Notes: generated from the letters alone by a model not told the origin. A stretch of DNA of 64,000 bases from Eubacterium sp. (GCA_017459345.1 JAFUDC010000138.1:10853-74852), one strand, 5' to 3'; counted from the stretch's first letter, positions 24,562 to 57,763 are shown. Numbers and translations are program-made.

Positions 24562-24739
24562 AATTAAAAAAATCCCCTATTCCACAAGAAATCAAATAAT
24601 ATCACATGAACATATAATGATATCACCTATATCAAATTATCAAGGTATAGTATGGTATATACATCAGATTCGATTGTGACTCTCCTTCTGAAAGGGGAGT
24701 TGGTTCACTGCAATTAGTAAAGATAAGGAGGTATATGTG

Positions 24740-25465
24740 ATGGTTGATTTATCAAAGATGACTAAATGGGATATGGGTAAGCTGTTTGATTTTTCTATCT
24801 TACCAAAACAGACAACTGAGGCTGAAATCCGCCATGGCTGTGATCTGGCAAAACAGTATAACTGCAAGGCATTCTGTTTTTCCTCTTCCGAATGGACACC
24901 TATCGTAGCAGAGGAACTGGCCGGGACAGATATCATGGTAGGGGCGGCAATCGGATTCCCCTTTGGTCAGCAGTCCAGTGCAGTCAAGGCCTTCGAGACG
25001 GAGGAGGCAGTACGTCTGGGTGCTACTGTTCTGGATAATTGCATGAATGTTGGAGATCTTAAGGATAAGAAGTACGATAAGATTCTTGCCGAATTCAAGG
25101 ATTATGTGGATGCTGCCCAGGGTGTTATGACCAAGATGATTATCGAGACCTGCTTCCTTACCAAAGAAGAGATTGTGACGGCGACAAAACTTGTCTGTGA
25201 GGCTGGCATTGACTGGGTGAAGACTTCCACAGGCCAGTATGCAGGGCCTTCTGTTCAGGATGTTATGCTGATGGTCGATGCATGTAAGGGCACCAAGACT
25301 AAGGTCAAGGTTGCCGGTGTCAAGGATCCGAGGCCTCAGAATGCCTTCTGCTTTTTCCAGGCCGGGGCTGAGCTGATTGGAACCCGGGCAGCCATGGAAA
25401 TCATTGACGCAGTGGATGATCTCAGGAAGATCGGCCTGATTCCTGCATATGTGGGTGATAAATAA
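24740..25465 (+). CDS. Divergent DeoC/DERA-family class I aldolase, paralog 1
   Basis: GFPFG, LDNCMNVG, KMIIETC, Schiff-base Lys in WVKTSTG, KVAGV and GAELIGTR. Confidence 0.85.
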   Translation: MVDLSKMTKWDMGKLFDFSILPKQTTEAEIRHGCDLAKQYNCKAFCFSSSEWTPIVAEELAGTDIMVGAAIGFPFGQQSSAVKAFETEEAVRLGATVLDNCMNVGDLKDKKYDKILAEFKDYVDAAQGVMTKMIIETCFLTKEEIVTATKLVCEAGIDWVKTSTGQYAGPSVQDVMLMVDACKGTKTKVKVAGVKDPRPQNAFCFFQAGAELIGTRAAMEIIDAVDDLRKIGLIPAYVGDK

Positions 25466-25527
25466 ATCGGGCACCCGACGACAATAGTCACAAAAACACT
25501 ACCCCATTTTTAAAGGAGGAATGAGAT

Positions 25528-26253
25528 ATGATTGATTTTACCAAGGTTAAAGATAAGAGAGCAGTTGGAAAGTTCTTTGATTATGCCATCCTGCCCAAGC
25601 AGACCACGGAGGCTGAGATTCGTTATCACTGCAAGAAAGCCATTGAGTATAATTGCAAGGCTTTCTGCTTCTCTTCCGACTACTGGACTCCTGTAGTTAA
25701 GGAGGAGCTTGAGGGTACAGATCTTCTGATCGGGGCTGCGATTGGCTTTCCTTTTGGACAGCAGGATAATCTGACCAAGTGCTTCGAGACGGAGAATGCA
25801 GTGAGACTTGGTGCCACTGTGCTTGACTGCTGTATGAATGTGGGAGATCTGAAGGATAAGAAGTATGACAAGGTTCTTCAGGATTTTAAGGACTATGTGA
25901 AGGCTGCCCAGGGCGTTATGACCAAGATGATTATTGAGACCTGTTATCTGACCCCGGAAGAGATCACCACTGCATCCAAGCTGGTGGCCGAGGCCGGGAT
26001 TGACTGGGTCAAATCTGCTTCCGGTCAGTATGATGGAACGACTGTGGATGAGTGCCTGCTTATGGTTGATGCCGTAAAGGGATCCGACTGTAAGGTTAAG
26101 GTTTCCGGCGTGAAGTTCCCTCGTCCGCAGAATGCCTATGTATTCTTCAGGGCAGGGGCAGAGCTGATTGGTACACGTTCGGCTCCGGATATCATCGATC
26201 ATTTTGATATGATGCGCCAGATTGGTATTATTCCTCCCTATGAGGGAGACTGA
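25528..26253 (+). CDS. Divergent DeoC/DERA-family aldolase, paralog 2
   Basis: GFPFG, LDCCMNVG, WVKSASG, KVSGV and LIGTR; tandem with and closely similar to paralog 1. Confidence 0.85.
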   Translation: MIDFTKVKDKRAVGKFFDYAILPKQTTEAEIRYHCKKAIEYNCKAFCFSSDYWTPVVKEELEGTDLLIGAAIGFPFGQQDNLTKCFETENAVRLGATVLDCCMNVGDLKDKKYDKVLQDFKDYVKAAQGVMTKMIIETCYLTPEEITTASKLVAEAGIDWVKSASGQYDGTTVDECLLMVDAVKGSDCKVKVSGVKFPRPQNAYVFFRAGAELIGTRSAPDIIDHFDMMRQIGIIPPYEGD

Positions 26254-26383
26254 TGCAAGATGAACATAAACCGTACAGGAGATTCTTAGACATTCCATAC
26301 AGTTTATATAGATAAAAGCAAACTGTTCAGGGAGCTGAACAGTTAAGATAAATATAAAAAGAAGTATTAAAGGGGGTAACAAA

Positions 26384-27901
26384 ATGGCTAAGTATTTAGT
26401 AGGACTTGACGGTGGAACCACAGGCTGTAAGACCTGTATCTTTGACCTGGAAGGAAAACTGATCGGCAGTGATTACAGGGAGTATCCCTGCTACTATCCA
26501 CATCCGGGCTGGGTTGAGCAGATCAAAGAGGATCTTCTTCCTGCATTCTATGACAGCATCAAGGCTGCCATCAACAATTCCGGAATTGATCCTGCAGATA
26601 TCATCGGCTTCGGCTTCTCCAGCCAGGGTTCCGTAATCGGTCTTCTGGATGAAGACGGCGAGCTGATTCGTCCATGGGTCGGCTGGCAGGATTTGAGAAG
26701 TGAGGGAGAAGGCGTTCAGTATCTTCTGGACAGAAAAGACAGAAGCGAGATCTATAAGCTGACCGGTGATCCTGTGGGAACCACATTCTCCAATGGGAAG
26801 CTGGCATGGCTTAAGCTTCATGAGCCGGAGAACTGGGAAAAGACCGCCATGTTCTCCACCATGCAGGATTATTTCCTGAAGAAATTCGGTGCTGACGGAT
26901 ATTACACCGACTATTCCTCTGCTTCCCGTGAAGGTATGATGGATATCGACAATAACTGCTGGTCCAAAGAGATGCATGATATTCTTGGTATTCCTCTGTC
27001 CAAGAGAGCTGAGATTGTTCATGAGCCAGGTAAGATTGTTGGCTACATCGGTGAAGAAGTATCCGCATTAAGCGGACTCCCGGTTGGAACCCCGATCTGT
27101 ATGGGCGCACACGATCAGAACTGCTGTACATTTGGTGCCGGTGCTGTGGATGATGGACAGGCTGTACTGGTTATGGGTACATTCGGCTCCTGCTTCGTAG
27201 TATCTGACAAGTCCATCCGTGACCCCAAGGAGAGACTGGTTGTAAAGGGTAACCATGGATGCGGAAACTACACTATCGAGGCCTTCTCCAACACAGCAGC
27301 TTCCTCCTATCGCTGGTATAGGGATACCTTCTGCGATTATGAGAAATTAAAAGGTGAGGAGACAGGAAAAGACCCATACGATCTGATCAATGAGCAGATT
27401 GAAACATCCCCTATCGGTGCAAATGGCGTAACCTTCCTCTCCTTCCTTCAGGGTGCTGCAGGTGCCAGAATCAATGGTAATGCGAGAGGAACCTTTGTAG
27501 GTATGACCCTGGGAACCAGGAAGGCAGATATGGCCCGTGCGGTTATGGAAGGCATCTGCTATGAAATGTACGACATCATCCGGGCAGAAGAAGACTCCGG
27601 AATCAAGATTGACAAGATCCGTCTTGCCGGCGGTGCAGCCAAATCTCCGCTCTGGTGCCAGATGATGGCTGATATCTTCAAACATCCTATCCAGATTCTT
27701 GAGAATGGCGAGGCCGGATGTCTTGGTGCCGCTTTGTATGCAGGTGTAGGCGTTGGCGCATACAAGGATTGCCATGAGGCAGCCAAGGTTGCCCGCACAA
27801 CCAAGGAGTACACGCCGAATCCGGATAACTTTGAAGCATATGACGCTGCATACAAGAGATTCTGCGATGTTTATGATGCATTAGACGGAAAGATCTTCTA
27901 A
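26384..27901 (+). CDS. FGGY-family carbohydrate kinase
   Basis: GLDGGTTGCK, HPGWVEQ, GAHDQ, MARAVMEG and GGAAKSPLWCQMMAD. Confidence 0.88.
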   Translation: MAKYLVGLDGGTTGCKTCIFDLEGKLIGSDYREYPCYYPHPGWVEQIKEDLLPAFYDSIKAAINNSGIDPADIIGFGFSSQGSVIGLLDEDGELIRPWVGWQDLRSEGEGVQYLLDRKDRSEIYKLTGDPVGTTFSNGKLAWLKLHEPENWEKTAMFSTMQDYFLKKFGADGYYTDYSSASREGMMDIDNNCWSKEMHDILGIPLSKRAEIVHEPGKIVGYIGEEVSALSGLPVGTPICMGAHDQNCCTFGAGAVDDGQAVLVMGTFGSCFVVSDKSIRDPKERLVVKGNHGCGNYTIEAFSNTAASSYRWYRDTFCDYEKLKGEETGKDPYDLINEQIETSPIGANGVTFLSFLQGAAGARINGNARGTFVGMTLGTRKADMARAVMEGICYEMYDIIRAEEDSGIKIDKIRLAGGAAKSPLWCQMMADIFKHPIQILENGEAGCLGAALYAGVGVGAYKDCHEAAKVARTTKEYTPNPDNFEAYDAAYKRFCDVYDALDGKIF

Positions 27902-27990
27902 GCATGGTTTACAGGTCTGTTAATAGGAGGTCAGAGCTTTAGATGCCAAGATGGCAAGGGCTTTCCTGATTCAGAACAGATTAGAAAAAG

Positions 27991-28042
27991 GCTGCCCGGC
28001 AGATTGCCTGTATGTTATTTGCCGGACAGCTTCATTATTTTT
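27991..28042 (+). terminator. Possible terminator hairpin between the kinase and the transaldolase-like gene
   Basis: GCTGCCCGGCA...TGCCGGACAGC imperfect stem followed by a T-rich tract. Confidence 0.4.
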
Positions 28043-28154
28043 AGTAGAAGAGAAGCCGATTTCGTCCGTGAATGCGTAAGCAGGAACGGGTTCGGAATCG
28101 AGCATCCGAACGAATTTGTTAGCAATAAAACATACGTTTTTAGAGGAGTAAAAG

Positions 28155-29456
28155 ATGATTAATGTGAATTTAAGCTCTCTGGGTCTTCCGGCAGTCAGAG
28201 GAGAGGAAGCATTTGTTGAACGTGTAAAGGATATGCCGATCTGTATCAATGATTATAAAGACCTTAGCGCAATTGCAAGGTTTGTGGGAGTGACTGACCA
28301 GTTTAAGGATGTCATTACCACATTTGATACACCGGAAGGGGAGACCCCTGCAGGCTTCAGAAGAGAGCTTACTTTAGACAGCGACCAGGTAGTAAGAGTT
28401 GATCTTGTCAGGGATATTTCCTATGACAAGAATGGAATCTTACGTCCGACCAGCGTCCTGTTCTCCGCCGACAGTGCCAACCCATATGAAGTGGAACCCA
28501 TCAGTCCGCTGATTTCCAACCTGACCTGCAATCCGGGAATCATCTATGATCTTTTCATCAATAATCCCAAGGCCAATGTTGGGAAAAAATATGAAACCCG
28601 TGATGAGGTAATGGGAGAGATTTCCCGGATCTTAGGACCCGGTTGTGATATCAGCGTGGAGCTGAACAATCCATTTGAGGAGGACTTTAGCAAGATTCTC
28701 GAGGAGGTTCAGAAGTTTGAGGAAATGTTCTCCAAGTATCGTCTGGTAGTGAAGGTCCCCCATACAGGAGCCGTGACACCGGAGAATGTCGGCCAGCTTC
28801 TTACTGGCAACAAGAAGCTGGATGCCAGATACGACACGGTGGGAACAGGCAATGCTCTTCGGGGCCATAACCTTGCTTTAAAGCTGCAGCAGAAGGGATA
28901 CCGCGTAAACTTCACCCTGATGTTTGAGCCCTTCCAGACCCTGATGGCCCTGCAGGCCAGACCTTATTTTATTAACACCTTCTTAAGACATCGTCTGGTT
29001 CAGTCTACGAATATTCAGAAGTTTGTAAAGCAGTACGAAGCTTCCAAAGATACCAAGGCTCTGGAATCCTTAAGAGATTACTTTATTGCCAATGACTATT
29101 ATACAGAGGCTGATAAGGATATGCCGCTTTCGGAAGTCCTGAAGTTTGGCAGGGATCTGATCAAGTACCGTCATTTCGAAGATGCCCAGGGCAGCGATGG
29201 CCTCGATGGCATGCGCCACAACCTGAGAGTGCTTAAGAACAGCAATTTGGAGGATACCCGACTGATCGTATGCTCCATGGAAGGACCATACAACTATCCG
29301 GATATCGACAAGCTGCTGGCTGAGCCTGAGTTCATCGAGATGAATAAGAAGGTTGTTATTACCGCTGAGCCTAATTATCTGGCGAGATTTACATCCACCA
29401 ACCAGGTAATCAGCTATCAGAGAAGATTCATGAACGCTGCCAACGGGCAGAAATAG
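28155..29456 (+). CDS. Transaldolase/FSA-family protein, unusually long
   Basis: LTCNPGI (TTNP-like), VVKVP (Schiff-base Lys) and VNFTLMF (NxTL motif); about 100-residue N-terminal extension and an internal insertion. Confidence 0.75.
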   Translation: MINVNLSSLGLPAVRGEEAFVERVKDMPICINDYKDLSAIARFVGVTDQFKDVITTFDTPEGETPAGFRRELTLDSDQVVRVDLVRDISYDKNGILRPTSVLFSADSANPYEVEPISPLISNLTCNPGIIYDLFINNPKANVGKKYETRDEVMGEISRILGPGCDISVELNNPFEEDFSKILEEVQKFEEMFSKYRLVVKVPHTGAVTPENVGQLLTGNKKLDARYDTVGTGNALRGHNLALKLQQKGYRVNFTLMFEPFQTLMALQARPYFINTFLRHRLVQSTNIQKFVKQYEASKDTKALESLRDYFIANDYYTEADKDMPLSEVLKFGRDLIKYRHFEDAQGSDGLDGMRHNLRVLKNSNLEDTRLIVCSMEGPYNYPDIDKLLAEPEFIEMNKKVVITAEPNYLARFTSTNQVISYQRRFMNAANGQK

Positions 29457-29488
29457 GAAAAACGAATGCTGTAATTTGATGAATCAGA

Positions 29489-29547
29489 TTGACATGTATA
29501 TACAAGTATGATATAATACAAATAACTTAATATCTGATAACATGTCA
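29489..29547 (+). promoter_or_regulatory. Consensus promoter of deoC paralog 3 with two TGACATGTCA-like sites
   Basis: TTGACA(29489)-17 nt-TATAAT(29512) with an extended TG. TGACATGTAT overlaps the -35 box and TAACATGTCA lies at 29538-29547. Confidence 0.65.
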
Positions 29548-29682
29548 TAAACAATTGTGCATAAGCAGAAATCTCCAAAGAGTTAAAAAAGACATGCCGA
29601 TAATATCATATCACATATAAAAGAGATGGGTAATGTACTATAGTTAAGACAGCCTTAAAACTAATCTAAGAAGGAGGTTATT

Positions 29683-30405
29683 ATGGTAGATTTATCTAAG
29701 TACAACAAAGAAAACATTGGTAAACTCTTTGACTACTCTGTTCTGCCAAAGAATTCCGATGAAGCTGCCATCCGCAAAGGCTGTAAGGAAGCAGTGCAGT
29801 ATAATTGTGCGGCTTTCTATCCATCCAGCCCTTACTGGCTGCCGGTGATCACGGAAGAACTGGCAGGAAGCGATGTCCTTCCGGCAGCTGCAATCGCATT
29901 CCCCTTTGGAAGTGCCACTGCGGCAACCAAGGGATTTGAGACAGAGGAAGCCATCCGTCTGGGTGCAAAATCTGTGGATACCTGCCTGAATGTAGGTGCC
30001 CTCAAGGATGGTAAATATGACGTGATCCGGGAAGAGCTTCGCGTGTTCAAAGAGGCTGCTCAGGGTGCACTTACAAAGTACATTCTTGAAACCTGTTTCC
30101 TGACAGACGATGAGATCCGGGCTGCCTGCGAGCTGGTTGCAGAGGCCGGTCTTGATTATGCCAAGACTGCCAGCGGACAGTTTGAGGGGCCATCCATGGA
30201 ACAGTTCCTGATCATGAAAGAGACCTTAAAGGGAACACCGGTTAAATTAAAGGTTGCCGGAGTTAAGTTCCCGAGACCGCAGAATGCCTATGCATTTATT
30301 ATGGCCGGCGCAGACCTGATCGGGACAAGGGCAGCCCCTCAGATGATTGATGCATTAGATCAGATCAGAGAGATCGGACTGATTCCGCCTTATAAGCCGG
30401 AATAA
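29683..30405 (+). CDS. Divergent DeoC/DERA-family aldolase, paralog 3
   Basis: AFPFG, VDTCLNVG, YAKTASG, KVAGVKFPRPQNA and LIGTR. Confidence 0.85.
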   Translation: MVDLSKYNKENIGKLFDYSVLPKNSDEAAIRKGCKEAVQYNCAAFYPSSPYWLPVITEELAGSDVLPAAAIAFPFGSATAATKGFETEEAIRLGAKSVDTCLNVGALKDGKYDVIREELRVFKEAAQGALTKYILETCFLTDDEIRAACELVAEAGLDYAKTASGQFEGPSMEQFLIMKETLKGTPVKLKVAGVKFPRPQNAYAFIMAGADLIGTRAAPQMIDALDQIREIGLIPPYKPE

Positions 30406-30579
30406 ATTAGATAATGTATTGAGGGGACTTGCAGGTATCGGGAGATCATTGATGTTTCGATACCTGCTGCTTTATAAGATCATTGAGATGATTCCCATTT
30501 GAATTCCGATTGTGACACCCCTTTTTTCAAGGGGAGAGAGCTCGGTTAGGATTGATAGTAATTAGCAAAGGTTTATGGT

Positions 30580-31413
30580 ATGAGTATGAGCGGGCTGATA
30601 AAAAATCTCACAAACAAGATCGAGAAAAGAGAGTTTCTTGTGGCAGCAGGCGTGGATAACCTGGAGGATGAAAAAAAGTGCACTCAGGCAGGCAGTGATT
30701 TCATCCTGTTATATCCGACTTCCCGCTACCTCAATGCAGTAAACAGGTTCCTGGCCGGATTCATCGCTCTGGGTAATACAAATCAGATGATGATAAAAAC
30801 AGCAGATAACCTGATGCCTTTTCTAAAAAGCAGGGAACTATTTGCCGGGATTAATGCCACAGATCCTTTTATCATTGATTCAATCTTACTGAAAACCATA
30901 AAATCCTACCGGTTTGCCGGTGTCCATAATTATCCTACCATGGCCTTGATTGATGGAGAATTTGGTGCCAATATCAATGCATCAGGCTTTGGCTTTGAGA
31001 AGGAACTGATTTTTTTTGAGAAGGCAAAAGCGGAAGGCCTGTTTACCTGTGCCATGGTAAGAAATATGAAACAGGCCATGCAGATGGCAAAGATGAATGT
31101 GGATATCATCATATTTTATCTCGGCTTTGGGGAGAGAGCATATTCCGGACAGAAGGACAGCTCTTCACGTACAAAAAAGGATGTGGACAGTTTAAAACGA
31201 CTCACTGCAGCTGTCCGCAAGGTGAATCAGGATACCATACTCCTCTTTCACAGTGAGAGAGTTTCCGATGTGGAAGAAATCAGAGTCATTGCCCGGGAGG
31301 TGCCTGATATAGACGGCTACTATGTTCTGTGCCTTGGTGATAAAGGTTTATTCGAGAAAAATCTTGATATGGTAATCAGTAATATCAAAACGATCAGGAG
31401 TGGGGATCTATGA
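30580..31413 (+). CDS. TIM-barrel signal-transduction (PEP hydrolase-like) protein, stand-alone
   Basis: GINATDPF and FAGVHNYPTMALIDG..F...GFGFEKE match the family pattern also seen in the next gene. Confidence 0.7.
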   Translation: MSMSGLIKNLTNKIEKREFLVAAGVDNLEDEKKCTQAGSDFILLYPTSRYLNAVNRFLAGFIALGNTNQMMIKTADNLMPFLKSRELFAGINATDPFIIDSILLKTIKSYRFAGVHNYPTMALIDGEFGANINASGFGFEKELIFFEKAKAEGLFTCAMVRNMKQAMQMAKMNVDIIIFYLGFGERAYSGQKDSSSRTKKDVDSLKRLTAAVRKVNQDTILLFHSERVSDVEEIRVIAREVPDIDGYYVLCLGDKGLFEKNLDMVISNIKTIRSGDL

Positions 31414-32597
31414 AAAGAGAAGCGCTGCTTGAAAGATTACGGTCGGTTATCCGGGTAAAAGGCCATATACTGACTGTGGCTGTGGGAAGTGCCATGGCTG
31501 CACAGTTTATCATGGAAGGCGGGGCGGATGTTCTTATATCCATTAATGCAGGGAAATTCCGCACAAAGGGCCAAACAGCCTATGCAGCTTTCCTTGGATA
31601 TTCTGACGCTAACAGTATGACTATGGATTTTGCCCTCACGGAACTCCTGCCGGCTGTGGGAAGCTTTCCGGTTGTGGAGGGCGTTTTCATGCAGGACCCT
31701 AACATCCATCTTTATGAATATTTAAAGAAAATCAAAGAATATGGGTTTGCGGGAGTGGTTAATTACCCTACCGTTGCCCTTTTTGATGGAAAGTTCCGGG
31801 ATGCCATTGAGTCAGCAGGGCTGGGATTTGAGAAAGAAGTTGAGGGAATCCGTCTGGCCCATTTTCTGGATCTTCTGACTTTAAGCTATATTCATACCAG
31901 GGAGGAGGCAATCGCCATGGCCCAGGCGGGTGTAGATATTATCTGTATCCACTATGGCATCACCGGCGGCGGCAAGCTGGGAGCCAACCGCGTCCTCTCC
32001 ATGGAGATGGCCATGAAAAGGGCCAAGGATATCTTCGATGCCATTGATGAGATTAATCCCAATATCATCAAGCTTGTTTCCGGCGGCCCGGTTCAGACAC
32101 CGGTAGAGGCAATCGAATTGTACCGGAATACCAAGTGCCAGGGTTTGCTTCTGGGATCGGCCATAGAGCGGATTCCCATAGAGCGGGCAGTGGTTAATAC
32201 CACAAAGGCTTTTAAGAGTACGGGAGATTTTGACAGCAGCAATATCGTGTCCCAGGTATTGAACGGTGATGTGGAGAAAAAAGACTATGCCGAATTCATG
32301 ATCCGGTACATTGAGAAGAACTATGCCAAGCAGGTAAGGCTGAAAGACCTGTCTGTAATTACCTACATGTCAACTTCCCGACTCAGTGTTCTGTTTAAGG
32401 AGCGAACAGGCCAATCCTTCACGAAATATCTGATCAATTACAGGATGGAAAAGGCCAAGGAGCTGCTGCTCACCACAGATGATCAGATCAAACAGATCAG
32501 CCTTCAGGTAGGATATGAGGATTACTCACAGTTTGTAAAAATGTTCCGCAAAATGGTTCTCATGTCTCCTCAGGAATACAGACAGAAAAACAGATAA
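31410..32597 (+). CDS. TIM-barrel signal-transduction domain fused to an AraC-type HTH
   Basis: GVFMQDP and FAGVVNYPTVALFDGKFR...GFEKEVE; C-terminal AraC signature LFKERTGQSFTKYLINYRMEKAKELL...VGYEDYSQFVKMFRK...SPQEYR. Confidence 0.8.
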   Translation: MKREALLERLRSVIRVKGHILTVAVGSAMAAQFIMEGGADVLISINAGKFRTKGQTAYAAFLGYSDANSMTMDFALTELLPAVGSFPVVEGVFMQDPNIHLYEYLKKIKEYGFAGVVNYPTVALFDGKFRDAIESAGLGFEKEVEGIRLAHFLDLLTLSYIHTREEAIAMAQAGVDIICIHYGITGGGKLGANRVLSMEMAMKRAKDIFDAIDEINPNIIKLVSGGPVQTPVEAIELYRNTKCQGLLLGSAIERIPIERAVVNTTKAFKSTGDFDSSNIVSQVLNGDVEKKDYAEFMIRYIEKNYAKQVRLKDLSVITYMSTSRLSVLFKERTGQSFTKYLINYRMEKAKELLLTTDDQIKQISLQVGYEDYSQFVKMFRKMVLMSPQEYRQKNR

Positions 32598-32619
32598 ACA
32601 TAAGAAAGGATAAAATAAT

Positions 32620-33330
32620 ATGATAAAAAGAGAAGAATTAACGGTAGAAAGATTTGCGAAAGTTTTTGATATGGCAGTACTTGCCCCCGACACCCAGGAA
32701 GAGGCAATCCGCCAAGCCTGCCGTCAGGCAAAAGCCCATAATCTTGCAGCCATGTATACTACTCCCTGCTGGACAAAGGTTGTAGCAGAAGAGCTTGCCG
32801 GCACCGATGTAAATGTGGGCGTAGCCATCTCCTTCCCCTATGGAACGCTGACGACAAAGATGAAGATGGCAGAGATTGATGATGCCATTGCCAATGGCGG
32901 AACTGCCCTTGATATGGTAATCAATATCGGGGCTTTAAAGGATGGCAATCTGGATCTGATTCGTGAGGAGATTCAGGGTCTGGTGGATAAGGCTAAGGCT
33001 GCCGGGGCATTAAGCAAGGTTATCATCGAGGTGGGTTACCTTACCGATGAGGAGATTGCCACGGTGACGAAGATCTGCTGTGAGTGCGGCGCAGATTATG
33101 TCAAGACCGCAACCGGATCCGCTGGTCTTCCGGATACCCATCATGTTGAAGTGATTCGTGCCAACATATCCGGAAATACCAAGATGAAGCTCTCCGGCGT
33201 GCCGAGACAGTTTGTGCTCTCCGCCTGTCTCCGCATGCTTGAGATGGGTGTGGAGCTGATCGGTACAAGAAGTGCCTGCAAGATTGTTGACCAGTACGCA
33301 GAGTATCTGAAAGAGCTGGAACAGGCCTGA
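32620..33330 (+). CDS. Divergent DeoC/DERA-family aldolase, paralog 4
   Basis: SFPYG, LDMVINIG, KVIIEVG, YVKTATG, KLSGV and LIGTR; the most divergent of the four. Confidence 0.82.
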   Translation: MIKREELTVERFAKVFDMAVLAPDTQEEAIRQACRQAKAHNLAAMYTTPCWTKVVAEELAGTDVNVGVAISFPYGTLTTKMKMAEIDDAIANGGTALDMVINIGALKDGNLDLIREEIQGLVDKAKAAGALSKVIIEVGYLTDEEIATVTKICCECGADYVKTATGSAGLPDTHHVEVIRANISGNTKMKLSGVPRQFVLSACLRMLEMGVELIGTRSACKIVDQYAEYLKELEQA

Positions 33331-33417: not shown

Positions 33418-34572
33418 TTGATGGGAAGAAGATTTCCTGAATTAAAGGGGATATTGGGGTTTGGAACCCTCAGGCTTCCCCTGATTGAAGATGGTGTTGT
33501 TGATATTGAAGAAGAAAAAAGGATGGTAGACTACTATCTGGAGAATGGATTCAACTATTTCGATACGTCTCATAACTACATAGGAGGAGCCAGCGAGAGA
33601 TCCATCAAGGAATGTCTGACAGACCGCTATCCCAGGGACCGCTATATCCTGGGTAATAAATTATCCCGTGCATATTTTAACCGTAAGGAAGATATCCGGC
33701 CTCTGTTCGAGTCCCAGCTTGCCATCTGCGGGGTGGATTATTTTGATTTCTATCTCATGCACTCTCAGAATGGGCAGAGATATGAGCGCTTTAAGAGGCT
33801 GGGAGCCTATGATACGGCAATTGAACTGAAAAAAGAGGGCAGGATCCGCCACTTCGGTATCTCCTTCCATGATAAGGCGGCTGTGCTGGAGAAGATTCTT
33901 CAGGAATATCCTGAGATTGAGGTCGTGCAGATTCAGTTTAATTATGTGGATTATGATTCTGCCTCAGTGGAAAGCAGGAAGGTCTATGATGTCTGCCGCA
34001 AATATGACAAGGCCATCTTCATCATGGAACCCTTAAGAGGCGGCTGCCTGGTCAACCACCTGCCGAAGGAGGCAGAGGAGGAATTTGCCAGGCTGGGGGG
34101 CGGAAGTCCTGCCAGCTATGCCCTCCGCTTTCCGGGGAACTTTGAGGGAGTTGAGATGATCCTTTCCGGTTTCAGCAATCTGGAGCAGACCATGGAGAAT
34201 GTGAATACCATGAAGGACTATCAGCCTCTTTCCGAGAAGGAGATGGAGACCGTATTTAAGGTTAGAGACCTCTTCAAGGCCCAGGATATGATTGCCTGTA
34301 CCTCCTGCCGTTACTGTATGGAAGGCTGTCCCAAAGGAATCCTGATCCCGGATATCTTTGCCTGCCTGAATGCGGAGACCTCCTTTACCTCCTGGAAGTG
34401 GAGCACAGAGATCTACTATCATGAATCTCTGACCATCAATGGCAATAAAGCCTCCGACTGCATCGGCTGCGGTCAGTGTGAGGCCAACTGCCCCCAGGGT
34501 CTGCCTATCAGAGACCTGCTTAAGGTTGCTGTGGAGGAGTTTGAGAAGAAGGAGAGGGCTGTGATCAGGTAA
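33418..34572 (+). CDS. Aldo/keto reductase with C-terminal 4Fe-4S dicluster
   Basis: LGFGTLRLP, YFDTS, GISFHD and MEPLRGG; CTSCRYCMEGCP and CIGCGQCEANCP. Confidence 0.88.
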   Translation: MMGRRFPELKGILGFGTLRLPLIEDGVVDIEEEKRMVDYYLENGFNYFDTSHNYIGGASERSIKECLTDRYPRDRYILGNKLSRAYFNRKEDIRPLFESQLAICGVDYFDFYLMHSQNGQRYERFKRLGAYDTAIELKKEGRIRHFGISFHDKAAVLEKILQEYPEIEVVQIQFNYVDYDSASVESRKVYDVCRKYDKAIFIMEPLRGGCLVNHLPKEAEEEFARLGGGSPASYALRFPGNFEGVEMILSGFSNLEQTMENVNTMKDYQPLSEKEMETVFKVRDLFKAQDMIACTSCRYCMEGCPKGILIPDIFACLNAETSFTSWKWSTEIYYHESLTINGNKASDCIGCGQCEANCPQGLPIRDLLKVAVEEFEKKERAVIR

Positions 34573-34618: not shown

Positions 34619-35455
34619 ATGAAAAAACAGTTAGTTGTCGCAGACATGGACGGGACTTTGTTAAACAGCAATAAGGAGATGACAGACCGGACTCTGTCTG
34701 CTATCAGGGAAATCTCCCGCCGGGGTGTGATATTCACCGCTGCCAGCGGCAGACCCAGGGAGTGTCTGACAAGACAATTTCCGGGTATCCCCGTGGCAAC
34801 CATCTCCGATAACGGTTCAACAGTATACGATGAAAAAGGCCGGCTCATCTTTTCGGGAGGCTTCAGCTGGGATCAGATCCGGCCGGTCTTTGAGGCTGTA
34901 AGTCTCTATGACTTCATGCATCCCGTATTCTGCGGTCTGAAAAATCTTTATGTCTTAAAAGGGTCAGATGAGGAAACCCGTTTATATACAGCCTATTATC
35001 TGCAGATCAACATTCTTGAAGTGGAAGATATTTCAGAAATCTACCAGATGGACAAGATTGTAAAACTGTCAGTCCACACCAACAAGGATGGTTCGGAGGA
35101 AGCAAAGGGTTACGAGATTCTCGAGCCTTTTGCAGATGACTTCTTTATCACCCTTTCCGGGGATGGATGGATAGATATCCAGAAGAAGGGGTGTACAAAA
35201 GGTGATGCTCTCATGGAGTTGTGCTCATACCTGGGAGTTGATAAAAAGGATGTGTACGTGTTCGGCGATTACCTGAATGATTTTGATATGTTATCAAGAT
35301 TCCCCAACAGCTACTGCATGTTAAACGGCCATCCTGATGTGAAGGCGGTCTGTTCCCATGTGACAAGATACTCCAATAATGAGGATGGTGTGGCCAGGGA
35401 ACTGGAGGAGATATTTGCTCTGGATATGAAGGCAGATCAGCATATTTGCCAATGA
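34619..35455 (+). CDS. Cof-type HAD-IIB phosphatase 1
   Basis: DMDGTL, ASGR, TKG and FGDYLND. Confidence 0.88.
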   Translation: MKKQLVVADMDGTLLNSNKEMTDRTLSAIREISRRGVIFTAASGRPRECLTRQFPGIPVATISDNGSTVYDEKGRLIFSGGFSWDQIRPVFEAVSLYDFMHPVFCGLKNLYVLKGSDEETRLYTAYYLQINILEVEDISEIYQMDKIVKLSVHTNKDGSEEAKGYEILEPFADDFFITLSGDGWIDIQKKGCTKGDALMELCSYLGVDKKDVYVFGDYLNDFDMLSRFPNSYCMLNGHPDVKAVCSHVTRYSNNEDGVARELEEIFALDMKADQHICQ

Positions 35456-35672
35456 ATATGAGGGTAAACTGGCATATTTGCCTGAAAATGTATAACTCGG
35501 TCCTGATTCTTTGTGCTATATTTGGATGAGCCGATAGATCATCAATATTGCTTTTGCAAAAAAGATATGATAAAATATAACCAGACAAACGACAACAAAA
35601 TTGATGCCGTGACTGGTAGTGGATATGTCCCGGAGAATGATATTCTCTGGGATTTTCTCTTATTGAGATAGG

Positions 35673-36497
35673 ATGGTGGCAGCGGTGAGTTATGAATTGA
35701 TCGGCCTGGATCTGGATGGAACATTGACCGATTCCAACAAGGAGATATCGGAGAATACCAGAAGAGCTCTGTTCCGGCTGATGGAAAAGGGAAAGAAGGT
35801 TGTCCTGGTATCCGGCAGATCCATATACGGCGTGATGCCTCTTGCCAGGGAACTGAAACTTGACCAATATGACGGTTATGTGATGGGCTTTAACGGCGGA
35901 CAGGTAGTAAGCTGCAGAACCGGAGAAGTTCTGCATGATTATTTACTGCCCGGAGGGGTGGCAGAATCAGTCTATAAAGTGACCAGCTCTTATCAGGATG
36001 TGGCCCTGATTACATATCATCAGGATACGATCATTACTGGCAGAAGGACCAATCAGTATGTTGAGCTGGAAGCTTTCGGGTCCAGGATGGCTGTGAGAGA
36101 GACGGATCACTTTGCAGAAGAGACCGCCGGGCTTTCGCTGAATAAAGTTGTGGCCTGCGGAGATCCTGTCTATATTTCCGAGATTATGGTAAAGCTGAAG
36201 GATAAGTTTGGTGCTTCTCTGAATCTCTTTACTTCAGACCCTTATTTTGGAGAAGTTATGCCCAAAGGGATCGATAAAGGGTATTCCCTGCAGATGCTGG
36301 TAGAGAGTTTAGGCTTCACTTCGAATCAGGTTATCTGCTGCGGGGATTCCGGCAATGATATCCCCATGATTCGCTATGCCGGCCTGGGAGTTGCCATGGG
36401 TAATGCCCTGCCTGAGGTCAAAGCAGCTGCAGATTATGTGACACTTACTAATGATGAAGAAGGAGTTCTTCATGTCATAGAAAAATACATGCTGTAA
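35673..36497 (+). CDS. Cof-type HAD-IIB phosphatase 2
   Basis: DLDGTL, VSGR, DKG, GDSGND and GVAMGNA. Confidence 0.9.
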   Translation: MVAAVSYELIGLDLDGTLTDSNKEISENTRRALFRLMEKGKKVVLVSGRSIYGVMPLARELKLDQYDGYVMGFNGGQVVSCRTGEVLHDYLLPGGVAESVYKVTSSYQDVALITYHQDTIITGRRTNQYVELEAFGSRMAVRETDHFAEETAGLSLNKVVACGDPVYISEIMVKLKDKFGASLNLFTSDPYFGEVMPKGIDKGYSLQMLVESLGFTSNQVICCGDSGNDIPMIRYAGLGVAMGNALPEVKAAADYVTLTNDEEGVLHVIEKYML

Positions 36498-36623
36498 GTA
36501 TTGTGCAGGGAATGAGCGATATATAGCTTGCACAACAGGCGCATAACGCATAATCATAAAGGCGAGTACGCCTGAAATAAGAGACAGGAAGTCGACTGAG
36601 ACATAACAGGGAGGAATCGACCT

Positions 36624-37484
36624 ATGAGTAGCATATCTGATTTTGTAAGAGAGAGAGGAGACCTGTCAAAGATCCTGCTGGTTTCAGACCTTGACGGAAC
36701 CCTGATGAACAGGGAGAATGACATCAGCCAGGAGAACCGGGAGGCAATGCAGGAATTTGTGGATATGGGAGGACGCTTTGCCGTGTGCAGCGGCCGTGTG
36801 GTTGCTTCCACAGAGTGGCTGAAGGTTCCCATGAACACACCATCTATCCTTCATAATGGCGGCTCTATCTACGATTTTAATGAGGGCAAGGTGGTCTGGA
36901 CCATGCCCATGGAGGAGACAGTGCGAGATCTTCTTCTGGACCTGCAGCTGCATTTTCCGGAGACAGCCTGGACGGTATATACTGCCAGAGAGCATTGCGT
37001 GCTGCACCATAACAAGTGGTCAGACTGGCTGAGCGGCATCGAAGGCTGCAAGCCTTCCAGAATCAACTGTAAACTGGAGGATGTCACAGACCCTATCCTC
37101 AAGTTTGTCACACCGGGCTCCCCGGAGGAAATTGCGAAAGTGATGGCATATATTCATGACAACTGTGATCCGGAAGTCGGAACTCTCTTCCCAGGTAATG
37201 TATCTCTGCCTACTCTCCTGGAATTTACAGGGGCTAATTCGGATAAAGGGGCTGCCCTCCAGGCATTGGCTGAGATATGTCATGTAGAATTAAGTGATAT
37301 TATCTATATGGGCGATAATATGAATGACTATAATGCTCTGAAGATTGCAGGCCTTTCCGTTGTGCCTGAGAGCTGTCATCAGGGAGTACGCCAATTGGGA
37401 GACTATATCGGTGTGGATATGGATGAACACCTGATGGTGGATGTTCTGAATGAAATCAAGAAGGGATTAATGGGGAAAAAATAA
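36624..37484 (+). CDS. Cof-type HAD-IIB phosphatase 3
   Basis: DLDGTL, CSGR, DKG and GDNMND. Confidence 0.85.
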   Translation: MSSISDFVRERGDLSKILLVSDLDGTLMNRENDISQENREAMQEFVDMGGRFAVCSGRVVASTEWLKVPMNTPSILHNGGSIYDFNEGKVVWTMPMEETVRDLLLDLQLHFPETAWTVYTAREHCVLHHNKWSDWLSGIEGCKPSRINCKLEDVTDPILKFVTPGSPEEIAKVMAYIHDNCDPEVGTLFPGNVSLPTLLEFTGANSDKGAALQALAEICHVELSDIIYMGDNMNDYNALKIAGLSVVPESCHQGVRQLGDYIGVDMDEHLMVDVLNEIKKGLMGKK

Positions 37485-38358: not shown

Positions 38359-38386
38359 AAAACGGGGGAATAATCCCCCGCTTTTT
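38357..38386. terminator. Bidirectional terminator between convergent genes
   Basis: CGGGGGA/TCCCCCG stem flanked by an A run and a T run. Confidence 0.75.
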
Positions 38387-38753
38387 ATGACACTGCCTCG
38401 ATATTCTTGGAGGCCACAATATCTACTCCTGTGCCTGCAGCATCTGCGAGAATCACATCGCCGATAGCAACCGGTGCTTTTACAATAATGGGTTTGATCT
38501 GCTCAAGCACATCAAAAATCTTACCCTTTGGTATGTCATCCTTGGTCTTGACGGACAGAACCGGAAGAATGCCGCCTTCAACCCGGACAATGGATGTGAC
38601 CACTCTGGTAGGATTGAGCACTTCTTTTCTGGCATACTCATCTCCTCGCGGGCAGGTATTGCCTGTAACATCAGTTACCTGACCGTCTTCCAGGGTTACC
38701 GTGATCTGGCAGCCCAGAGGACAGCGGATGCAGGTTAAATTTTTCTTTTCCAT
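38385..38753 (-). CDS. DUF1667-like small Cys-rich protein, partner subunit of a GlpA-like dehydrogenase
   Basis: CAT at 38751-38753 reads MEKKNLTCIRCPLGC...GNTCPRG on the minus strand; the track labels it +. Confidence 0.8.
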   Translation of the reverse strand: MEKKNLTCIRCPLGCQITVTLEDGQVTDVTGNTCPRGDEYARKEVLNPTRVVTSIVRVEGGILPVLSVKTKDDIPKGKIFDVLEQIKPIIVKAPVAIGDVILADAAGTGVDIVASKNIEAVS

Positions 38754-38767
38754 GAAATCATATCCTC

Positions 38768-40042
38768 CTATTCACTTTCAATCTTCACTGTGATTGTCTC
38801 AAGTCCTTCAAATGCCTCAAGATCTTTCTTCTTCAGGATGATCTGCTCCATCTCACCTGGTGCCATAACCTGTTTTTTCCTGTGCTGCTTGCGCTCATCG
38901 TTGAAGTACACGCTGATATAGCTGTTCTTGAAGACATCGCCCACACGGAATCTTACGGTGAGAAGGTCTGTCATGTTATTAAGATGGATGGTGGTGGGTA
39001 CGGTATATCTGGCGCCGTTTGTGGCATTAACCTTGATTACCTTATCGTCCTTGGCTGCATCCTTGCCGTATCTTTCCTTCACATATTTTGCGGCGTTTTT
39101 GCCTGCTGTGGTTGCTTCCTCGGATACATAGTCAACCAGGTCATGTACATGCAGAACATTACCGCAGGCAAAGATACCTTCGATATTGGTCTCAAGGCTC
39201 TCGTCAACCAGAGGACCGTTGGTAACCGGACTTAACTCTACCTCAGCCTGCTTGCTGAGCTCGTTTTCGGGAATCAGACCTACGGAAAGCAGGAGGGTAT
39301 CACAGTCATAGTGTTCTTCGGTTCCGGGAACCGGCTTCCTGTCCGGACCTACCTCGGCGATGGTCACGCCGGTAAGACGGTCTCTGCCCTCGATATCGAT
39401 TACGGTATGGGATAGCTTCAGCGGGATGTCGAAGTCATCAAGACACTGAACGATATTTCTCTTCAGACCGCCGGAGTAGGGCATAACCTCAGCTACAACC
39501 TGTACATCCGCACCCTCAAATGTCATACGCCTTGCCATGATCAGGCCGATATCTCCGGAACCCAGGATGACAACCTTCTGGCCGGGCATGTAGCCTTCCA
39601 TGTTGACCAGTCTCTGAGCGGTACCGGCAGAATAGATACCTGCGGGACGGTAACCCGGAATGTTCAGGGCTCCACGAGGACGCTCCCGGCATCCCATGGC
39701 CAGAACAACAGCCTTGGCCTGGATCTGGTACATTCCCTCTTCTCTGTTCATCACGGTCACAACCTTATCCTTGCTGATATCCATGACCATGGTGTGCAGT
39801 TTATATTCGATATCAAGCTCTTTTGCCTGATCGATAAAGCGCTGGGCATATTCCGGTCCGGTAAGCTCCTCCTTAAAGGTATGCAGACCGAAGCCGTTGT
39901 GGATACACTGGTTTAAGATGCCGCCTAAGCGGTCATCTCTCTCTATCATCACGATGGAGTCTATGCCTTCTTTTTTGGCAGCGATAGCGGCAGCTAAGCC
40001 GGCAGGACCTCCACCTACGATTACAACATCATAAGATTTCAT
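38768..40042 (-). CDS. FAD/NAD(P)-dependent pyridine nucleotide-disulfide oxidoreductase subunit
   Basis: Minus-strand MKSYDVVIVGGGPAG, GGILNQCIHNGFG, GSGDIGLIMARR and CGNVLHVHDLVD; the track labels it +. Confidence 0.87.
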   Translation of the reverse strand: MKSYDVVIVGGGPAGLAAAIAAKKEGIDSIVMIERDDRLGGILNQCIHNGFGLHTFKEELTGPEYAQRFIDQAKELDIEYKLHTMVMDISKDKVVTVMNREEGMYQIQAKAVVLAMGCRERPRGALNIPGYRPAGIYSAGTAQRLVNMEGYMPGQKVVILGSGDIGLIMARRMTFEGADVQVVAEVMPYSGGLKRNIVQCLDDFDIPLKLSHTVIDIEGRDRLTGVTIAEVGPDRKPVPGTEEHYDCDTLLLSVGLIPENELSKQAEVELSPVTNGPLVDESLETNIEGIFACGNVLHVHDLVDYVSEEATTAGKNAAKYVKERYGKDAAKDDKVIKVNATNGARYTVPTTIHLNNMTDLLTVRFRVGDVFKNSYISVYFNDERKQHRKKQVMAPGEMEQIILKKKDLEAFEGLETITVKIESE

Positions 40043-40063
40043 AATTATTCTTCCCCCTTTGCA

Positions 40064-41506
40064 TCAGTTCTCTTTGATCTTGCCGGTAAGCATGTTGGAG
40101 CCTGTTCCCTTCTTGGTGATCTGCTCCATCGGGATGCCGGTCTCTCTTGAAAGGATCTCCATGGTCTTCGGGGTACAGAATCCGGCCTGGCATCGGCCGG
40201 TACCCTGACGGGTTCTGCGCTTGATGCCATCTAAAGAGGTTGCGCCGATGGGACGGTTGATGGCATCCACAATCTCGGCTTCCGTGATCATTTCGCAGCG
40301 GCATACAATCTGTCCATACTGCGGATTCTTCTTGATCAGTTCATTTCTCTCCTCGATGGAGAGTCCCTCTGTGCGGACAACGCCCTTTCTGGTGTCAATG
40401 AAGTTCTCCTTTTTCGGGAAATGATACTTATCCTCAATCAATCCTGCCATCATCTCACCGATTGCAGGGGAGCTGGTAAGACCTGGGGACTCGATGCCGG
40501 CTGCATCAAAGAATCCCGGGGAGTCTGCAACTTCCTCTACGATAAATTCGTGATTCTCCCAGTGAGCACGGAGTCCGGAGAAGGAAGTGATAACCTTGTT
40601 CATGGGAAGGACATCCTTGGTAAGATGTGAGTGCTGTGCCTTGTAAACCAGGTCATCCAGGATCTCCTGGGTGGTGTTGGTGGATTCCTTGTCCTCCACA
40701 TCTGTTGCAGTCGGGCCTACGTAAAGGTTTCCATGGATGGTGGGGGCAGTTAAGACACCCTTACCCATCTTGCCGGGAAGTGTAAATACAGTCTTTGTGA
40801 AATAATTACCCAGTTCCTTATCCAGGAGCAGGTACTCTCCCTTACGGGCGATGATCTTGATCTTGTTCTCGCTTACCATGTTATGCAGTTCATCTGCATA
40901 AACACCGGCTGCATTGACAACGATCTTCGACTCAAAGGTTCCCTTGCTGGTTTCCACTTCATAGTGGTCGTCTTTCTTCACGATTCCGGTAACCTTGGTC
41001 TCGAACTTGAATTCGCAGCCATTCACTGCAGCGTTCTCACCCATGGCGATGGCCAGGTTGAAGGGACAGATTACACCGCCGGTCGGTGCATAGAGAGCTG
41101 CCACCGCATTAGGTGTCAGATTGGGCTCCATCTCAAGAAGCTCATCTCTCTCCACGATACGGACTCCGGGAACACCGTTCTTGATCCCCTGATCCAGAAG
41201 AACGTCCAGCTTGCCTCTCTCTGCTTCCACAGTACAGACAACCAGAGATCCATTCATCTTTGTCGGGAAGTCCAGTTCCTTGGAATACTTGTACATCAGC
41301 TCGTTGCCTCGTACATTCAGCTTTGCCATCAGAGTGCCCGGTTTGCAGTCGAAGCCGGAATGGATGACACCGCTGTTTGCCTTGGAAGTTCCGGATGCAA
41401 CATCATCGCCTTTTTCCAGCAGGCAAAGATTGATATCATACCTGGACAGCTCTCTGGCGATACAGGTTCCGGTTACTCCTCCGCCGATTACGATCACATC
41501 ATACAT
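40064..41506 (-). CDS. GlpA/LhgO-like FAD dehydrogenase with BFD-like [2Fe-2S] domain, copy 1
   Basis: GGGVTG, SGTSKANSGVIH, GIESPGLT and C-terminal CRCE...GRCQAGFC; start placed at MYDV after GGAGG. Confidence 0.85.
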   Translation of the reverse strand: MYDVIVIGGGVTGTCIARELSRYDINLCLLEKGDDVASGTSKANSGVIHSGFDCKPGTLMAKLNVRGNELMYKYSKELDFPTKMNGSLVVCTVEAERGKLDVLLDQGIKNGVPGVRIVERDELLEMEPNLTPNAVAALYAPTGGVICPFNLAIAMGENAAVNGCEFKFETKVTGIVKKDDHYEVETSKGTFESKIVVNAAGVYADELHNMVSENKIKIIARKGEYLLLDKELGNYFTKTVFTLPGKMGKGVLTAPTIHGNLYVGPTATDVEDKESTNTTQEILDDLVYKAQHSHLTKDVLPMNKVITSFSGLRAHWENHEFIVEEVADSPGFFDAAGIESPGLTSSPAIGEMMAGLIEDKYHFPKKENFIDTRKGVVRTEGLSIEERNELIKKNPQYGQIVCRCEMITEAEIVDAINRPIGATSLDGIKRRTRQGTGRCQAGFCTPKTMEILSRETGIPMEQITKKGTGSNMLTGKIKEN

Positions 41507-41634
41507 AAACCCCACCTCCATAATAATGAGTTTGCAGCAGCGATTCTACAAATATGCCCATAAATAAGGTTTTGAATGGCTGCTTATTGTGAATGTTTCA
41601 GGTATTAAAGGAAATATGCCATTCCTACTTATAT

Positions 41635-43407: not shown

Positions 43408-43498
43408 AAAACACGGATAACCCCATATTCCTGTGTTTTTGTTATATATGCGGCCATAGCCGCCCGAAAACTCATAATACTAAGAGGAGGTATTCACT

Positions 43499-45052: not shown

Positions 45053-45122
45053 TTGCCTTAGAAGATCCGAAATCGGATTGCAGGTTAAGTAAGTTCTCAT
45101 ACTTAATGTCATACATGTACGG

Positions 45123-45157
45123 GAATGCCCGCACCGCTTATTGCGGTGCGGGCATTC
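45123..45157 (+). terminator. Terminator hairpin after the kinase
   Basis: GAATGCCCGCACCGC/GCGGTGCGGGCATTC 15-bp stem. Confidence 0.7.
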
Positions 45158-45251
45158 TTAGTGTATAGTATATTTAGTCCAATTTGTTACTACGCAGAGC
45201 CATGCAGATTTTTGGACAATGTGCTTATATCAGCAAAAGGAGGATATTATC

Positions 45252-57682: not shown

Positions 57683-57763
57683 CTGTGATTATCTGTAACT
57701 GATAACGGTACAGACTTTGAAATCACTTAGTGATTATCTATGATGAAAGGGGAGGCTGATGAT

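Follow-up and report, generated by a model that had tools for sequence, protein, structure and literature searches.

A distinct clade of DERA-like aldolases with its own FGGY-family kinase marks an undescribed sugar-breakdown module in Eubacterium and other bacteria

A 64,000-nt stretch of DNA from Eubacterium sp. (GCA_017459345.1 JAFUDC010000138.1:10853-74852), called the window here, has between 24.7 and 33.3 kb eight plus-strand genes in the order A1-A2-K-T-A3-P1-P2-A4, four of which encode proteins related to deoxyribose-phosphate aldolase (DERA, DeoC). The aldolase genes are A1 (24737-25465, 242 aa; homologs suggest that translation starts at the ATG at 24740), A2 (25528-26253), A3 (29683-30405) and A4 (32620-33330). 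K (26384-27901) specifies an FGGY-family sugar kinase with FGGY_N and FGGY_C domains, and T (28155-29456) a divergent transaldolase-family protein of 433 aa. P1 (30580-31413) encodes a stand-alone TIM barrel of family PF09370 ('PEP hydrolase-like'; 176.6 bits), and P2 (31410-32597) a PF09370 domain (286.9 bits) fused to an AraC-type helix-turn-helix (HTH_18). The initial annotation of this DNA remarked on the lack of deoB, nupC and pdp, and none of these was found among the open reading frames (ORFs) scanned in the window.

The four aldolase genes are real members of the DeoC family, as that annotation had proposed. All pass the NCBIfam deoC equivalog TIGR00126 (A1, 162.7; A2, 149; A3, 145; A4, 160.3 bits; cutoff 117.3) and the Pfam family PF01791 (29-47 bits; cutoff 23.8), and E-values of 1e-42 to 1e-48 per copy exclude chance as the origin of the matches. 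A2, A3 and A4 are respectively 70, 58 and 41% identical to A1. The catalytic Asp and both Lys were also said to be kept in every copy, and so they are: D100, K162 and K191 (A1 numbering) do not vary among the four copies or among the aligned members of the clade described below. They correspond to the catalytic Asp D102, the Schiff-base Lys K167 and the second Lys K201 of E. coli DERA. The AlphaFold2 (AF2) model of A1 (pLDDT 90.6) is a (beta/alpha)8 DERA barrel that matches 3ngj, 8qps, 4xbs and 5dbu in Foldseek with TM scores of 0.82-0.95 and rmsd values of 1.3-1.6 A; its lowest-confidence stretch is the rebuilt beta-7 loop.

What, then, sets these proteins apart from ordinary DERAs? A genome scan, taking one genome per species, returned 80 loci, and 111 DeoC-family ORFs from these were aligned together with L. 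brevis DERA (4xbs). Every canonical DeoC in the alignment has IDHT.LK, KTSTGF[SG], VKASG-G[VI]R and R[IL]G[AT]S. Every clade member has instead FD[YHFM][SA][IV]L, then K[TS]x[ST]G-Q/S, with an extra one-residue deletion after KTSTG (G-Q/S for GF[SG]), then K[VL]K[VL][AS]GV followed by a PRPQNA or PRQF insert, and finally [LR][IL]G[TS]R/Q. In A1-A4 this means that K(V/L)(A/S)GV(K/P) replaces KASGGIR, LIGTR replaces RIG(A/T)S and D(F/Y/M)(S/A)(I/V)L replaces DHT(L/I)L, so that each motif change listed in the initial annotation is present; A2, for instance, reads FDYAIL and KSASGQ, and A4 FDMAVLAP and SGVPRQF. All three phosphate-binding elements are thus replaced in every clade member, whereas they are intact in the canonical DeoC proteins aligned from 51 loci and in 4xbs; nowhere in that canonical sample is the GV/GTR signature found scattered, and no DERA of solved structure has it. 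The replaced elements align with what we take to be the phosphate holders of E. coli DERA (G171/K172, G204/G205 and S238/S239), and the anion pocket appears to have been rebuilt around an Arg in place of the usual Gly-Gly and Ser loops. Among the paralogs the clearest difference is at the position equivalent to C47 (E. coli numbering), which is Cys in A1, A2 and canonical DeoC and Tyr in A3 and A4; a scan for specificity-determining positions gave few strong paralog-specific sites.

In a neighbour-joining tree all signature-bearing proteins form one clade, apart from the canonical short DeoC proteins sampled. Identity to A1 is at least 50% for loci L007-L027 and at most 43% for the remaining loci, which are mostly canonical DeoC. 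The clade occurs in at least 8 of the bacterial lineages sampled. A search of 1.84 billion representative proteins yielded 6,361 DeoC-family cluster representatives, and at least about 22 of the best 150 of these have the non-canonical pattern, making the clade a small but diverse share of the DeoC family. In one protein from this representative library, P0261 (231 aa), the N-terminal half is clade-like (FSILPKETTEAEIREGC...FYSSSAFWTPVV) and the C-terminal half canonical (KTSTGFGKGG, VKASGGIRS, RLGASAS); it represents an intermediate in evolution or else a chimera produced by assembly. In gut metagenome assemblies, two close homologs that were looked up are each listed in 130-135 blocks of the collection.

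Are the four copies recent duplicates or old paralogs? In the tree each belongs to a separate orthogroup. All four orthogroups are common to Pseudoramibacter (L003) and a contig from gut Lachnospiraceae (L093), and those of A1-A3 also occur in Eubacterium and Acetobacterium (L001, L008-L011). Gene order is kept as well, either as A3-A2-A1-K or as A2-A1-K...A3-A4. Multi-copy loci have 2-5 paralogs. The single-copy loci of Spirochaetota, Planctomycetota, Synergistota, Victivallales, Acidobacteriota and a bacterium of the candidate phyla radiation are of the A3 type; A3 is the broad type and probably the ancestral one. Two more clades are peculiar to Acidobacteria and locus L017, from which it follows that multi-paralog operons arose more than once. 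By their sequences and tree positions A1-A4 are old, separately conserved paralogs, and for that reason they probably differ in substrate, by stereoisomer or chain length, rather than being redundant.

The kinase goes with this clade and not with DeoC at large. A K-type FGGY gene adjoins the aldolase gene in 24 of the 31 non-redundant clade loci, mostly at 4-90 nt, as against none of the 51 canonical deoC loci, which bears out the suggestion that kinase and aldolases belong together. The kinases are of two types. K1 kinases, to which K belongs, are 53-72% identical to K and lie beside A1 in Firmicutes (immediately 3' of it in the multi-copy loci), beside A4 in Actinobacteria and beside the extra clades in Acidobacteria; K2 kinases are 35-42% identical to K and lie beside single A3-type genes. 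K reaches none of the NCBIfam equivalog cutoffs, its highest scores (cutoffs in brackets) being 299 for XylB (380), 268 for GntK (649), 226 for LsrK (528) and 201-208 for GlpK (498-590). The true xylulokinase of the window, XylB, is another gene (59207-60712, 528 bits). One clade, a fixed signature and a dedicated kinase together make these aldolases the distinct DERA subfamily that was claimed for them.

The second part of that claim, that the subfamily has different substrates, may not hold for all four copies, and A4 is the reason. In Blautia metagenome-assembled genome (MAG) L034, an A4-type ortholog and a T homolog head a true nucleoside-catabolism cluster. No kinase is part of it; its genes include those for phosphopentomutase (505 bits, cutoff 256), a deaminase, an ABC ATPase, a protein like uridine phosphorylase and a nucleoside-binding protein of Bmp type. 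The link to nucleoside catabolism (deoA/B/D, nupC) that is absent from the window is therefore present for this ortholog. In L028 the A4-type gene stands alone among housekeeping genes, and in Actinobacteria A4-type genes are paired with K1. The first two arrangements mean that the GV/GTR signature alone does not exclude ordinary cleavage of deoxyribose-5-phosphate (dR5P), and A4 may be a working dR5P aldolase despite its changed motifs. Pairing with K1 or with deoB fits a pentose-5-phosphate type of substrate, reached from the free sugar through K1 or from nucleosides through DeoB.

T belongs to the transaldolase/FSA family (PF00923, TAL_FSA) by three tests: it passes the Pfam threshold (38.5 bits, cutoff 27, over residues 105-280), its AF2 model (pLDDT 71.6, moderate) has transaldolases for all of its best Foldseek matches, and it has the family's Asp, Asn, Glu, Lys and Thr motifs. 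It departs from the family in its length of 433 aa, which includes about 100 extra residues at the N terminus and about 28 aa inserted past the putative Schiff-base Lys, and it scores 17 bits against the FSA/TalC equivalog (cutoff 246). Neither single-sequence nor profile searches gave a significant PDB sequence match. In 30 homologs (70-92% identity, the range also seen among the 120 best matches listed) the motifs SADSAN, CNPG, VELN, VKVPHT and NFTLMF are invariant, as are D106, N126, E169, K200 and T254, which align with the transaldolase Asp, Asn, Glu, Schiff-base Lys and Thr motifs in a register checked against T. thermophilus TAL. With the 28-aa insert following it, K200 is best described as the putative Schiff-base residue.

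P2 is probably the local transcription regulator. P1 has a single PDB relative, 2p10, which is itself uncharacterised, and a published paper on a UPF0261 kinase concerns the partner domain, not PF09370. In L093 a free PF09370 gene recurs, and two PF09370-AraC fusions flank the cluster. The use of a PF09370 TIM barrel as the sensor domain of AraC-type regulators, beside a free-standing PF09370 paralog, is thus seen both at 30580-32597 and in L093 (2344-5754), and because the set recurs with the cluster the regulators can be called dedicated, as initially suggested. Elsewhere the regulators are of GntR/UTRA, IclR, DeoR or AraC type, which fits an inducible system.

The plus-strand run goes on past A4. 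An aldo/keto reductase (AKR) with a C-terminal 4Fe-4S dicluster domain (33418-34572; PF00248 plus Fer4) begins 87 nt past A4, and three tandem HAD-type hydrolases (34619-37484), apparently Cof-type and weak paralogs of one another, precede a DegV-like gene; the HAD and DegV labels were given by inspection of translations. The AKR is a possible reductase for an aldehyde product and the HADs could, by family resemblance, be sugar-phosphate phosphatases; the membership of both in the system is uncertain. A perfect promoter consensus of sigma-70 type (29489-29517, plus strand: TTGACA, 17-nt spacer, TATAAT and extended TG, 12/12 in the scan) lies between T and A3 and may start a second transcription unit, and terminator-like hairpins lie 3' of the first HAD gene and 3' of the DegV-like ORF, the last in the run. 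These consensus matches suggest two units, A1-A2-K-T and A3-P1-P2-A4-AKR-HAD.

In the sister loci, all neighbouring ORFs were clustered and then annotated. Recurrent among them are T and a split transketolase; a class II ketose-bisphosphate aldolase (FBA), for which cbbA was the only model passed; a PHP-domain phosphatase resembling nucleoside-bisphosphate phosphatases; and a HAD_2 phosphatase resembling phosphoglycolate phosphatase, which is of another kind than the HADs of the window. The PHP protein is fused to FBA in L003 (6690-8495), L011 and L087 (5738-7519), giving a single polypeptide of about 600 aa; by analogy this fusion suggests a bacterial counterpart of the archaeal bifunctional fructose-bisphosphate aldolase/phosphatase. 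Dehydrogenases are frequent: L003 and L096 have the GldA type, L025 and L034 an iron-type alcohol dehydrogenase (Fe-ADH), and the Eubacterium group a G1PDH-like Fe-ADH. Fe-ADH or GldA adjoins the cluster in four lineages. L093 carries the whole extended cassette along with PF09370/AraC genes as in the window. Since the window cluster is without the FBA, PHP, HAD_2, transketolase and GntR genes held by L093, it is a reduced version. In L096 the cluster consists of T, split transketolase, GntR, FBA and PHP, followed by oppositely oriented genes for GldA, FGGY and two DeoC proteins. Another cluster of this type is probably present, beyond the ends of the window, on the 117.9-kb contig from which the window comes; P0129, a second homolog of T, is 87% identical to T.

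Starting from the family, catalytic residues, pocket motifs, clade and synteny, which are direct observations, we infer the substrate, the direction of flux and the roles of T, AKR and P1/P2 as follows. We tentatively propose, while stopping short of calling it probable, that the locus is an inducible module in which a kinase and then an aldolase act on free small sugars, most plausibly 2-deoxy-aldoses, and whose products are recycled. K would phosphorylate the terminal hydroxyl of the free sugar, and A1-A4, forming a Schiff base on the conserved Lys, would carry out retro-aldol cleavage of the sugar phosphate to an acetaldehyde-type fragment and an aldose phosphate (glyceraldehyde-3-phosphate [G3P], or a tetrose phosphate from longer substrates). 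Carbon entering at the triose or tetrose level needs recycling, and T, as a transaldolase-type enzyme, joined in sister loci by the split transketolase and by FBA with the PHP bisphosphatase, would feed the phosphorylated product back into the pool of hexose and pentose phosphates. The aldehyde would be removed by a reductase, AKR-FeS here and Fe-ADH or GldA elsewhere, and P2 would turn the genes on. A parallel to the FBA-PHP recycling scheme is that the E. coli glycerol regulon includes glpX, a fructose bisphosphatase gene. 2-Deoxy-D-ribose is the obvious candidate substrate, at least for A4.

A number of observations weigh against this proposal. A simple G3P product would not strictly require the conserved FBA/PHP, transketolase and T. 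The proposal leaves unexplained the triose or polyol link implied by the recurrence of glycerol-type dehydrogenases (GldA, GlpA-like, GlpD-like and G1PDH-like). The sister loci for which Pfam gene tables were available have no transporter beside the cluster, the sole transport genes seen being an AI-2E-family gene in L029 and, in L034 and L038, both of the A4 type, the nucleoside ABC/Bmp set. The ligand of the pocket Arg could as well be something other than a terminal phosphate. A1-A3 hardly differ in their active-site motifs, which fits poorly with very different substrates and places the divergence of the paralogs mostly outside the pocket. Finally, the sequencing runs found to hold the locus are all of gut-metagenome DNA, with no RNA run among them.

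Could the copies simply be four ordinary and largely redundant dR5P aldolases, K being a non-orthologous deoxyribokinase and copy number a matter of dosage or mobile-element history? We consider this unlikely. It does agree with the scores of all copies above the deoC equivalog cutoff, with their intact catalytic residues, with the A4-type genes in the deoB/nucleoside cluster and alone in L028, and with the transposases that flank one version of the cluster. The rebuilding of all three phosphate-site elements goes against it, as does the independent appearance of multi-paralog operons, with further clades, in Acidobacteria and L017; moreover paralogs that are 41-70% identical and have each their own orthogroup across families are not recent duplicates. 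An aldolase made of unlike subunits, some of them structural or regulatory as in GatY/GatZ-type pairs, would account both for the order A3-A2-A1-K or A2-A1-K being fixed across genera and for a divergence that mostly spares the pocket. Every copy nevertheless has the full catalytic triad, many organisms have a single A3-type copy only, and here A3 and A4 are apparently in a separate transcription unit, so we give such a hetero-oligomer little credence.

The dehydrogenases raise the alternative of a polyol- or triose-linked route, which is rather improbable in our judgement. K would act on a polyol or ketose (erythritol, erythrulose or a glycerol-derived compound) and FAD- or NAD-dependent dehydrogenases would carry out oxidation; the DERA-like enzymes would split tetrose or pentose phosphates or convert them into one another, possibly with a donor of glycolaldehyde type and the phosphate one carbon nearer the scissile bond, and FBA/PHP, transketolase and T would assimilate the resulting erythrose-4-phosphate (E4P) or glycolaldehyde phosphate. 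Such a route would explain the GlpA-like trio found alongside the cluster both here and in three species of Acetobacterium (L001, L010, L026), the GlpD-like gene in Acidobacteria, and the GldA and G1PDH-like genes already mentioned. The phosphoglycolate-phosphatase-like HAD of the sister loci and the remodelled pocket are consistent with it, a cbbA-type aldolase with a bisphosphatase fits sedoheptulose-1,7-bisphosphate made from E4P, and small polyols need no dedicated transporter. The dehydrogenases are missing from most loci, however; isomerases of the EryC, TpiA2 or RpiB type were not seen in the window ORFs or annotated sister loci, and the A4-type/deoB link points to nucleoside sugars. 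DERA chemistry, besides, requires a 2-deoxy (alpha-CH2) aldehyde, and we know of no natural enzyme of the DERA clade with glycolaldehyde as donor. A very unlikely reading, offered as speculation, is a redox-neutral anaerobic sugar-alcohol route. In this, a diol dehydratase (B12-dependent or glycyl-radical) would convert an alditol (erythritol, pentitols or hexitols) to the matching 2-deoxy-aldose for phosphorylation by K; each DERA-like paralog would cleave one stereoisomer or chain length to acetaldehyde and G3P or a tetrose phosphate, and FBA-PHP, transketolase and T would assimilate the tetrose phosphate through sedoheptulose bisphosphate. This would account for the multiple paralogs, the bisphosphatase and three glycyl-radical enzymes in a Victivallales MAG (L025). 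The cluster is present in Acetobacterium woodii and Eubacterium relatives, which presumably encode diol dehydratases, as such a route would need.

To return to the kinase-then-aldolase module that we favour, how does it compare with known systems? The closest PDB relatives of the clade are all ordinary DERAs at 36-40% identity, among them the canonical short Gram-positive enzymes (EC 4.1.2.4; L. brevis 4xbk, S. suis 5dbu, B. halodurans 6d33), with which it shares the TIM-barrel fold (TM 0.86-0.94) and catalytic residues; it differs in its rebuilt phosphate site, in having an FGGY kinase instead of deoA/B/D or nupC, and in the 2-5 paralogs per multi-copy locus. Salmonella uses free deoxyribose by the deoK-deoC route (deoQKPX), and the module is like it in putting a free-sugar kinase before a DERA-type aldolase. 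It is unlike it in that the kinase is FGGY and not ribokinase/PfkB, in having no permease and several aldolase paralogs, and in its transaldolase, transketolase, FBA and phosphatase partners. For the sugar-phosphate-utilising (SPU) microcompartment loci, the release of acetaldehyde from a sugar phosphate has been proposed as the task of a DeoC-type aldolase; the aldolases there are 52-57% identical to T. maritima DeoC and their loci include bacterial microcompartment (BMC) shell proteins, AldDH, PduL and RpiB (Axen et al. 2014, PMC4207490). No BMC shell, AldDH, PduL or RpiB genes were seen here.

Two other candidates were examined and set aside. Lsr processing of autoinducer-2 (AI-2) likewise combines an FGGY kinase (LsrK) with a class I aldolase-fold enzyme of PF01791 (LsrF, DeoC/LacD family). 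It was rejected on the grounds that K scores far below the LsrK cutoff and that the aldolases fit the model for deoC and not LsrF; neither LsrG nor LsrACDB was found in the window or the sister loci examined. The Brucella-type erythritol pathway was unsupported, for although FGGY kinases and DAO-type dehydrogenases lie nearby, the window ORFs and annotated sister loci gave no EryC, TpiA2 or RpiB homologs.

Some further features of the window and of the sister loci deserve mention. The GlpA-like trio of the window (38385-41521, minus strand, convergent with the cluster) comprises a DUF1667-like ORF of 122 aa, so labelled from sequence resemblance only, a Pyr_redox_2 protein and a DAO/BFD protein, which together resemble a GlpA-like FAD dehydrogenase; as a recurrent neighbour it may be linked to the cluster. 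At 41965-45899 on the plus strand, a type-2 glycerol-3-phosphate-oxidase-like gene (294 bits, cutoff 460), a LUD-domain protein and another kinase of the FGGY family, which shares 34% identity with K, lie together and possibly make up a pair of polyol kinase and polyol-phosphate dehydrogenase. Farther along, a RuBisCO-like protein (54424-55746, plus strand) lies between SorC/DeoR-type regulators at 53298-54269 and 55983-56948; its best model is MtnW-like (336 bits, cutoff 409) and it scores 221 bits with the OiaX model of the apiose pathway. Following it 3' are a G1PDH-like Fe-ADH (57740-59068) and the true xylulokinase, and the region looks like another sugar pathway. In the Victivallales MAG (L025, 13136-20419) the three glycyl-radical enzymes are in tandem, unusually short (about 650-696 aa) and below all equivalog cutoffs, and stand directly downstream of Fe-ADH-FBA-PHP-DeoC-FGGY-IclR. 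In L087-L089 the cluster lies between IS3-type transposase genes and a group of ParA-like, Dcm methylase and Vsr genes, suggesting that this version travels on a mobile island among gut bacteria.

The initial annotation had called the route undescribed, and a full-text literature search gave no account of the clade or of the cluster. What is new is a phylogenetically broad DERA clade with its own kinase and conserved sugar-phosphate-rearranging partners, extending well beyond this window, whose genes mark an undescribed sugar-breakdown module. Automated annotation labels every clade protein 'deoxyribose-phosphate aldolase', and assigning the substrate would correct a systematic misannotation while giving a function to a ten-gene cassette. 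That cassette holds two more unstudied items, the FBA::PHP fusion and the 433-aa T. The DERA family is heavily used in biocatalysis, and the clade would supply it with natural variants that differ in acceptor recognition.

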